Virus record (IMG/VR): IMGVR_UViG_2617270979_000005
Coordinates: 1-17,402 of that record
Reading direction: 5' to 3' (one strand)
DNA length: 17,402 nucleotides
Source of the DNA: a virus
Taxonomy: Duplodnaviria > Heunggongvirae > Uroviricota > Caudoviricetes
Under the pieces are notes generated by a model. The model had not been told where the DNA came from. It saw only the letters and a program-made list of their open reading frames with translations, and did no database searches. A program made the translations under genes and the position numbers. This document shows positions 1 through 1,131 of the stretch, piece by piece; within the stretch, counting starts at the first letter, position 1; every line of letters starts with the position of its first letter.

Positions 1-504
1 TTATTGATAGTGTTTTATGTTCAGATAATGCCCGATGACTTTGTCATGCAGCTCCACCGATTTTGAGAACGACAGCGACTTCCGTCCCAGCCGTGCCAGG
101 TGCTGCCTCAGATTCAGGTTATGCCGCTCAATTCGCTGCGTATATCGCTTGCTGATTACGTGCAGCTTTCCCTTCAGGCGGGATTCATACAGCGGCCAGC
201 CATCCGTCATCCATATCACCACGTCAAAGGGTGACAGCAGGCTCATAAGACGCCCCAGCGTCGCCATAGTGCGTTCACCGAATACGTGCGCAACAACCGT
301 CTTCCGGAGACTGTCATACGCGTAAAACAGCCAGCGCTGGCGCGATTTAGCCCCGACATAGCCCCACTGTTCGTCCATTTCCGCGCAGACGATGACGTCA
401 CTGCCCGGCTGTATGCGCGAGGTTACCGACTGCGGCCTGAGTTTTTTAAATGGCGGAAAATCGTGTTGAGGCCAACGCCCATAATGCGGGCGGTTGCCCG
501 GCAT
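1..504 (-). CDS. insB: IS1 transposase InsB frame (normally expressed as InsAB' by -1 frameshift)
   Basis: 167-aa ORF with stop at 1-3; translation matches remembered IS1 InsB (…[21 protein letters not shown]…); overlaps insA in the -1 frame at the A6C site. Confidence 0.85.
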
Positions 505-698
505 CCAACGCCATTCATGGCCATATCAATGATTTTCTGGTGCGTACCGGGTTGAGAAGCGGTGTAAGTGAACTGCAGTTGCCATGTTTTACGGCAGTGA
601 GAGCAGAGATAGCGCTGATGTCCGGCGGTGCTTTTGCCGTTACGCACCACCCCGTCAGTAGCTGAACAGGAGGGACAGCTGATAGAAACAGAAGCCAC
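423..698 (-). CDS. insA: IS1 InsA transposition regulator
   Basis: 91-aa ORF with GTG start at 698; N-terminal CxxC…CxxC zinc finger ([16 protein letters not shown]…CSHCRKTW); matches remembered IS1 InsA. Confidence 0.9.
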
Positions 699-878
699 TG
701 GAGCACCTCAAAAACACCATCATACACTAAATCAGTAAGTTGGCAGCATCACCCAAACACTCAATCAACACTTAACAGAACTTTTATTTTTGACAAACAT
801 ATAATATTTTCAACAATATCCTGAGCCAGGTATATTTCAGTATAAGGCTCTGCCGAAAGGAATCTGGAAGAATGAATA

Positions 879-955
879 TGGCGCGCTGTACTGGATTCGA
901 ACCAGTGACCGATTGCTTAGAAGGCAATTGCTCTGTCCGGCTGAGCTAACAACGC
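879..955 (-). tRNA. tRNA-Arg (anticodon UCU, reads AGA), phage argN/argO-like
   Basis: Reverse complement gives a 77-nt cloverleaf GCGTTGT/TA/GCTC-AGCCGGACA-GAGC/A/ATTGC-CTTCTAA-GCAAT/CGGTC/ACTGG-TTCGAAT-CCAGT/ACAGCGC-G-CCA; 7-bp acceptor stem with one G-U pair, T-loop TTCGAAT, anticodon loop CU-UCU-AA. Confidence 0.85.
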
Positions 956-1055
956 TGAATACCGATAATGGACCGCCATCGGGGACCCGCCCCCGCACCA
1001 ACAACCCTGTTATCGTGTCGTCTGCTCTTCCTGATAAGCTAATGGCGGTTTGTGA

Positions 1056-1131
1056 TGGTGGCCCTTGCTGGATTTGAACCAGCGACCTGGCGATTATGAG
1101 TCGCTCGCTCTCACCACTGAGCTAAAGGGCC
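1056..1131 (-). tRNA. tRNA-Ile2-like (anticodon CAU, probably lysidine-modified to read AUA), phage ileZ-like
   Basis: Reverse complement gives 76 nt GGCCCTTTAGCTCAGTGGTGAGAGCGAGCGACTCATAATCGCCAGGTCGCTGGTTCAAATCCAGCAAGGGCCACCA; perfect 7-bp acceptor stem, anticodon loop CU-CAU-AA; anticodon arm resembles remembered E. coli ileX/ileY rather than tRNA-Met. Ile versus Met is an inference. Confidence 0.8.

Follow-up and report, generated by a model that had tools for sequence, protein, structure and literature searches.

A lambdoid prophage in which an insertion sequence stands directly after the tRNA genes of the late leader raises the question of whether the lysis and morphogenesis genes beyond it have been lost. 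This is the arrangement in the DNA analysed here (hereafter the window, 17,402 nt, positions 1 to 17,402 of the IMG/VR virus record IMGVR_UViG_2617270979_000005), which begins inside an IS1 element. The first-pass annotation had read it as a truncation of the late region by IS1, in a prophage that was possibly defective or whose cargo had possibly been displaced, and had noted the presence of only two tRNA genes.

The identity of the element and its place in a Q-dependent late leader were confirmed by an exact match to a 768-bp IS1 and by Pfam matches (Table 1). The window starts at the insB stop codon and, as had been stated, inside IS1, of which only the final 15 bp of the right inverted repeat (IRR) lie outside. 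The complete element is available in the contig from which the window derives (L024, JNRS01000010.1 of assembly GCA_000704805.1, JCVI E. coli 3-475-03 series; 100% identical to window 1-13626), where it measures 768 bp and carries imperfect terminal inverted repeats of about 23 bp (GGTGATGCTGCC... / GGTAATGACTCC..., from the alignment of the left repeat, IRL, with IRR). The copy in the window shares 98.2% and 99.2% identity with two annotated IS1A copies and 93-94% with other variants of IS1; in relatives the RefSeq label is IS1A family transposase, with a programmed frameshift also annotated. With this size and these terminal repeats, with insA and insB' joined at an A6C motif and matching DDE_Tnp_IS1, and with a 9-bp target duplication, the element is an intact, IS1A-like member of the IS1 family.

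Table 1. Features of the late leader and of IS1 in the window (coordinates of the window; minus-strand features are read from high to low positions).
Feature	Position	Strand	Evidence or remark
IS1 (bp 1-753 of 768 from IRL)	1-753	-	exact reverse complement of the IS1 of L024 (12874-13641)
insB' reading frame, 167 aa	1-504	-	Pfam DDE_Tnp_IS1, E=6e-78
insA, 91 aa, GTG start	423-698	-	Pfam Zn_ribbon_InsA and HTH_Tnp_IS1
A6C -1 frameshift motif TTAAAAAACTC, intact	439-449	-	IS1 bp 305
IS1 left inverted repeat (IRL) GGTGATGCTGCCAACTTACTGAT	731-753	-	IRL/IRR alignment and sequence
One copy of the 9-bp target-site duplication	754-762	.	CAAACACTC on the plus strand, GAGTGTTTG in the operon sense
AT-rich spacer, tRNA-Arg to insertion point	754-878	-	125 nt
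tRNA-Arg(UCU), argO type	879-955	-	ARAGORN; Rfam tRNA, 68 bits; one mismatch to argO of Stx2a_1447
Relic of the third tRNA, argN (UCG)	969-1048	-	alignment with the ileZ-argN-argO cluster of Stx2a_1447
tRNA-Ile2 (anticodon CAU, ileZ type)	1056-1131	-	Rfam tRNA, 72.5 bits; identical to ileZ of Stx2a_1447
N6/N4 DNA methyltransferase, 349 aa	1181-2230	-	Pfam N6_N4_Mtase, E=2e-44; PHROG DNA methyltransferase
Terminator-like hairpin after the 65-aa leader ORF	2377-2394	-	
65-aa leader ORF, phrog_331	2381-2578	-	
tR'-like intrinsic terminator, 83 nt downstream of Q	2707-2722	-	hairpin CCCGCCGCCTGGCGGG, then a T run
Q-type antiterminator, 273 aa	2805-3626	-	Pfam Antiterm, E=3e-49; phrog_127

On the minus strand, Q is followed by a hairpin, the 65-aa ORF with a second hairpin, the methyltransferase, tRNA-Ile2, tRNA-Arg, the spacer and IS1; the Pfam and PHROG matches agree with the annotated position of Q and of the methyltransferase upstream of the tRNA genes, and all that the annotation had stated as fact holds. 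For pR', a consensus scan detected no sigma-70 promoter match between Q and the terminator. The exact Q allele of the window is rare and occurs in about 10 contigs. Contigs encoding the window's methyltransferase or its cytosine methyltransferase proved to be uninterrupted relatives only, both proteins being too common to single out the source contig, to which the rare Q allele led. Two near-identical prophage copies (L025, 13.4 kb, and L026, 9.7 kb) differ from the window only at positions 1977 and 2022, where two missense changes, independent of each other, alter the N6/N4 methyltransferase (the relatives have V70G and L85R).

Regarding the tRNA genes, no third tRNA was called in 956-1055, in agreement with the annotation, and a diverged remnant of argN occupies 969-1048. 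The CAT-anticodon tRNA is called Met by ARAGORN and Ile/ileZ in RefSeq and in the annotation of Stx phages. Aligned with the three-gene cluster of Stx2a_1447, the 100-nt spacer between the two tRNAs keeps the halves of the acceptor stem, the start of the D arm, part of the T arm and the CCA end, and a 7-bp hairpin with a 3-nt loop replaces the anticodon arm, a pattern that identifies it as a decayed argN. Its predicted fold is cloverleaf-like, with the 3-nt loop in place of the anticodon loop, and is no better than that of shuffled sequence (z=-1.3). The relic is identical in relatives that lack IS1, hence conserved as such: the same two tRNAs and the same 100-nt spacer are found, free of IS1, in phage phiP27 and in hundreds of E. 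coli prophages (99-99.9% identity). Loss of the third tRNA through IS1 was ruled out on this ground. Since phiP27 and uninterrupted relatives at 99.9% identity have the same pair, the two-tRNA state is ancestral to the phage lineage and unrelated to IS1.

The insertion point itself is well defined. IS1 ends 125 bp from the 3' end of tRNA-Arg, as annotated, in a region of 74% A+T, and window 754 is the exact point from which uninterrupted relatives align. In L001 and L027 the empty site is ...TTGATTGAGTGTTTG/TTATACGG..., with GAGTGTTTG present once; L027 is a metagenome contig that combines the rare Q allele of the window with this empty site (...GAGTGTTTG/TTATACGG...). In relatives the first late accessory (moron) gene, phrog_2873 (108 aa, E=1.7e-70), starts 12 nt past the insertion point, and is followed, in FDAARGOS_1259 and others, by DUF3927, an IraM-like gene on the other strand and a NanS-p-type sialate esterase, then by holin, YdfR, lysozyme, Rz and terminase. 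The annotation had expected relatives with cargo and lysis genes past this site; they have them, and structural genes as well. The site lies right where the cargo (moron) and lysis region begins, and IS1 is co-directional with late transcription. An exact search for the phage/IS1 junction of the window found it in none of the GTDB representative genomes, IMG/VR or the JGI metagenomes, and IS1 occupies this point in 0 of 5,426 complete E. coli genomes. Nothing specific was found in the literature on IS elements in the pR' region.

What lies on the other side of IS1 depends on the contig consulted. L024, the only contig spanning the whole element, reads tRNA-Arg, 125 nt, IS1, 420 nt of AT-rich DNA, then cusS(-), cusR(-) and cusCFBA(+). 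The two flanks of its IS1 are unlike (GAGTGTTTG against AATGATTGC), with no target duplication. Taken at face value, this joint is a rearrangement joint and looks like a truncation. The leftward extension that the annotation had proposed thus gave two answers: the cusS flank, with the late genes absent, in the source contig, and the late genes in L040, an IMG/VR contig described below. In a sibling assembly that differs by 1 SNP in 13.4 kb, the contig stops within the same IS1, at bp 567. A contig of run SRR1186641 matches window 1077-4444 at 100% identity. The AT-rich DNA beside cusS (L024 13642-14061, 420 bp) is a recurrent IS1 target, a hotspot: dozens of complete E. coli genomes carry an IS1 in the cusS flank, at several different positions, among them D5, whose copy is a 94%-identical variant flanked by the duplication ATAGATGGC. 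A second IS1 copy there in the source strain is plausible given this hotspot. A separate simple insertion at the cusS flank would leave the joint ...ATTAAAATG(AATGATTGC)/IS1-IRL. The IS1/cusS junction of L024 was absent from the JGI metagenomes, and its exact joint was found in no complete genome.

For a simple insertion, a right-side junction consisting of the late side, CAAACACTC and IS1-IRR was predicted and then sought in IMG/VR. It was found in one contig, L040 (4,286 bp, isolate genome 2609459864), which reads ...GTTGGAGTCATTACC/GAGTGTTTG/TTATACGGTC... with IS1 in the same orientation as in the window. L040 begins at IS1 bp 313, and all of its IS1 bases (456/456) are identical to the source copy; other IS1 copies differ from the latter at 1-54 positions. 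Beyond IRR and GAGTGTTTG follow phrog_2873, DUF3927, the IraM-like gene, the NanS-p-type esterase and holin, and the first 692 bp of this late side are 99.86% identical to L027. These features suggest that L040 comes from the same lineage as the window. A 95-nt stretch of the rare Q matched 26 proviruses of IMG/VR; IMG genome 2609459864 was not among their sources, and their identity to the window reached 98.2% at most. The esterase allele of L040, either DFAST-specific or too common, gave no tie to the source assembly, and a partial InsB led to unrelated contigs.

Because nucleotide, orientation, 9 bp and IS1 variant are all the same, the L040 junction is the other half of the insertion event seen in the window. 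An independent insertion in an unrelated strain, which would make L040 uninformative on the IS1 of the window, is extremely improbable: IS1 does prefer AT-rich DNA, and the spacer is 74% A+T, but such an event would have had to hit the same position in the same orientation with the same 9 bp and an IS1 variant identical at 456 of 456 bases, on a late side 99.86% identical to a contig with the rare Q allele, at a point where IS1 occurs in no other of 5,426 complete E. coli genomes. The target-site duplication for which the annotation had called is accordingly available in two pieces, GAGTGTTTG standing once in L024, beside IRL (as in the window), and a second time in L040, beside IRR; present at both ends of IS1 and once in relatives, it shows that IS1 originally arrived by simple insertion, duplicating 9 bp. 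The late genes follow IS1 immediately in L040, so that truncation of the late region by IS1 is not established. The annotation had taken the late operon to be disrupted past the element, and in L040 the operon continues; likewise, the cargo follows IS1 and nothing suggests that it was displaced.

It should be noted that L040 could stem from an ancestor or sibling preceding a later deletion. The joint to cusS in L024 is weighed here on its own. Breaks at bp 567 and bp 313 leave an identical overlap of about 255 bp, which could merge any two contigs ending in IS1, and the most likely cause of the adjacency of IS1 and cusS is that contigs were joined at identical copies of IS1. A simple insertion together with a chimeric contig is the account we hold to be probable, and a real secondary IS1-mediated rearrangement, deletion and inversion taken together, appears doubtful.

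If the truncation were real, the simple insertion would have been followed either by an adjacent deletion mediated by IS1 or by recombination with a second, directly oriented copy in the cusS flank; all DNA between the insertion point and a position 420 bp from the cusS stop would be gone, and the prophage would be cryptic. The loss would cover the genes for lysis, head and tail and, going by D5 and REL606, where the argU prophage late genes are followed by ompT, envY, ybcH, nfrAB, rhs/vgrG and cusS, the ompT-envY-ybcH-nfrAB genes and the rhs/vgrG island, about 50 kb in total. The passage of L024 from IS1 into the cusS flank without a target duplication fits an adjacent deletion, which leaves an IS at a novel joint of this kind, but a mis-join is expected to give the same. 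The orientation also agrees with the gene order of K-12, REL606 and D5 (prophage late genes, ompT, nfrAB, cusS), and both end points are AT-rich IS1 targets. This course of events nevertheless requires the argU/DLP12 locus, whereas the closest relative of the left arm has an integrase of the potC/potB type, ompW and serT are the sites of other relatives, and D5 carries another type of prophage at argU; moreover, an intact right junction exists in L040, of apparently the same lineage, and the sibling assembly does not reproduce the join of IS1 to cusS. We therefore consider a real truncation improbable. Loss of about 50 kb by deletion at the DLP12 locus, the reading favoured at first, was downgraded in view of L040 and of the potC/potB-type integrase on the closest left arm; nothing specific was found in the literature on IS1/ompT/DLP12 deletions. 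Were the cusS joint real, the prophage would be without lysis and morphogenesis genes at this locus, and its Q-dependent late transcript would cross IS1 and meet cusS and cusR in antisense, in which case induction would damp copper and silver sensing, while the prophage itself stayed locked in without lysis genes; we regard this as very improbable.

The position of the prophage on the chromosome bears on the same question. The exonuclease arm of the window is 99.7% identical to that of a provirus whose integrase type sits at potC/potB in ATCC 25922, where the resident prophage shares the int-xis-exo-DUF1482-dicB-...-ParE arm. Further relatives occupy ompW or serT/hyaA, and the D5 prophage next to cus, at argU, is a different, lambda-like phage. 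We infer from this that the window's prophage may be integrated at potC/potB, about 590 kb from cus. With this position and orientation, the L024 joint would mark a tandem duplication of 590 kb rather than a deletion or an inversion. An adjacent deletion needs map neighbours with only dispensable DNA between them, and the proxy evidence places the two points otherwise; on that evidence a deletion from potC/potB to cusS appears not viable. A rearrangement without loss is just as improbable as the truncation. In it, inversely oriented IS1 copies in the prophage and in the cusS flank would have recombined and inverted the chromosomal segment between them, splitting the prophage so that Q and the tRNAs lie by cusS and the late genes by the former left neighbour of cusS. 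IS1 copies commonly serve as substrates for inversions, and such an event would account for the coexistence of phage/IS1, IS1/late-gene and IS1/cusS junctions; the site and orientation taken from ATCC 25922, however, make the two copies direct rather than inverted, the fourth junction lacks direct evidence, and a large event within one replichore would be required. A simple insertion, joined to the cusS flank during assembly, thus remains the account that we prefer.

The remainder of the window shows several further features of the prophage. A region on the minus strand (5507-7701) encodes an NgoMIV-type restriction endonuclease (5507-6385) and a cytosine-5 methyltransferase (6399-7517/7523), in place of the hokD coding region that related prophages have; immediately before the methyltransferase start, about 180 nt of the hok leader survive and account for an Rfam 'sok' match at 7454-7634. 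A gene for QueH (epoxyqueuosine reductase) lies in the nin region (7702-8388). A gene for a 166-aa HTH repressor (12091-12591) is directly followed by genes for a PaaA2-like antitoxin of 63 aa and a ParE-family toxin of 96 aa, a pair located at 12609-13090 (+) in the leftward operon. The DicF sRNA (Rfam, 76.7 bits; 14598-14649, +) and DicB (15009-15197, +) mark this leftward operon as being of the Qin/DicB type. The window and the source contig both end inside a large exonuclease gene of the YdfE/Exo VIII type (15690-17402, +), the last base of the window coinciding with the end of the contig; this gene occurs in several copies per genome, so that the assembly breaks there and the integrase and attachment site are not visible.

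The late leader resembles that of Stx2 phages (Stx2a_1447, 933W type) in having the same order of Q, methyltransferase and ileZ-argN-argO module, with an identical ileZ, an argO one base apart and a methyltransferase region about 93% identical to those of Stx2a_1447. The features of an Stx-type leader are present: Q stands upstream, ileZ and argO are retained, and cargo with holin, lysozyme and Rz is found in the relatives and L040. Unlike the Stx2 phages, the window has no stx genes, its argN is a relic and its Q (273 aa, Pfam Antiterm) belongs to a different family; where Stx2 phages have stx after the tRNAs, the relatives of the window type have phrog_2873, DUF3927, the IraM-like gene and the NanS-p esterase. 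Phage phiP27 and the widespread non-Stx lambdoid prophages of E. coli, such as those of FDAARGOS_1259 and ST131, share ileZ, argO and the spacer, are 99-99.9% identical to window 754-3000 and, unlike the window, have no IS1 at the site.

Classical polar IS1 insertions reportedly include those in gal, lac and phage lambda (lambda r14 in cII). The element studied here shares with them the length of 768 bp, the imperfect 23-bp repeats, the A6C motif between insA and insB', the 9-bp duplication and an AT-rich target and, as in the lambda insertions, lies inside an antiterminated phage operon; it differs in lying in the Q-dependent late leader of a resident prophage, not a laboratory phage. IS1 insertions in prophages are common, and this one, in an Stx-type lambdoid late leader without stx, is routine and nothing new in kind. 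IS1-bounded deletions and prophage decay have also been described in E. coli and Shigella, including loss of DLP12-ompT (PMC5723341). The source contig resembles them in having IS1 at a joint of prophage and chromosome with no target duplication, but differs in that the probable map position does not fit and that an undeleted junction exists.

The course of events that best accommodates these observations begins with the transposition of an intact 768-bp IS1 into AT-rich spacer DNA in the Q-dependent late leader of a lambdoid prophage of the DicB/Qin type, 125 nt after tRNA-Arg(UCU) and 12 nt before the first moron gene, with duplication of 9 bp of target. The late genes of the source strain would still be joined to the other end of IS1, and the join in L024 would have arisen by merging two identical IS1 copies, that of the prophage and that of the cusS flank. 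The insertion places 777 bp (768 bp plus the 9-bp duplication) between the pR'-Q-methyltransferase-tRNA segment and the late genes, without damage to Q, the methyltransferase or either tRNA. Ordinary transcription is subject to the polar effect of IS1. Terminators do not stop Q-modified RNA polymerase, just as IS insertions do not stop the N-modified enzyme. By analogy with lambda, the lysis and morphogenesis genes need not be silenced by the insertion alone, since Q-modified polymerase ignores terminators; late expression may thus survive IS1, and the defect that the annotation had considered possible would not follow from the insertion by itself.

These observations indicate that a contig running through an IS copy can mimic the truncation of a prophage, which matters for automated calls of prophage completeness; here, it took the matching junction of a second contig to overturn the obvious reading as a truncation. 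Should the insertion be simple, the prophage would offer a natural case of IS1 in a Q-antiterminated operon, in which the ability of Q-modified polymerase to override IS1 polarity could be tested.
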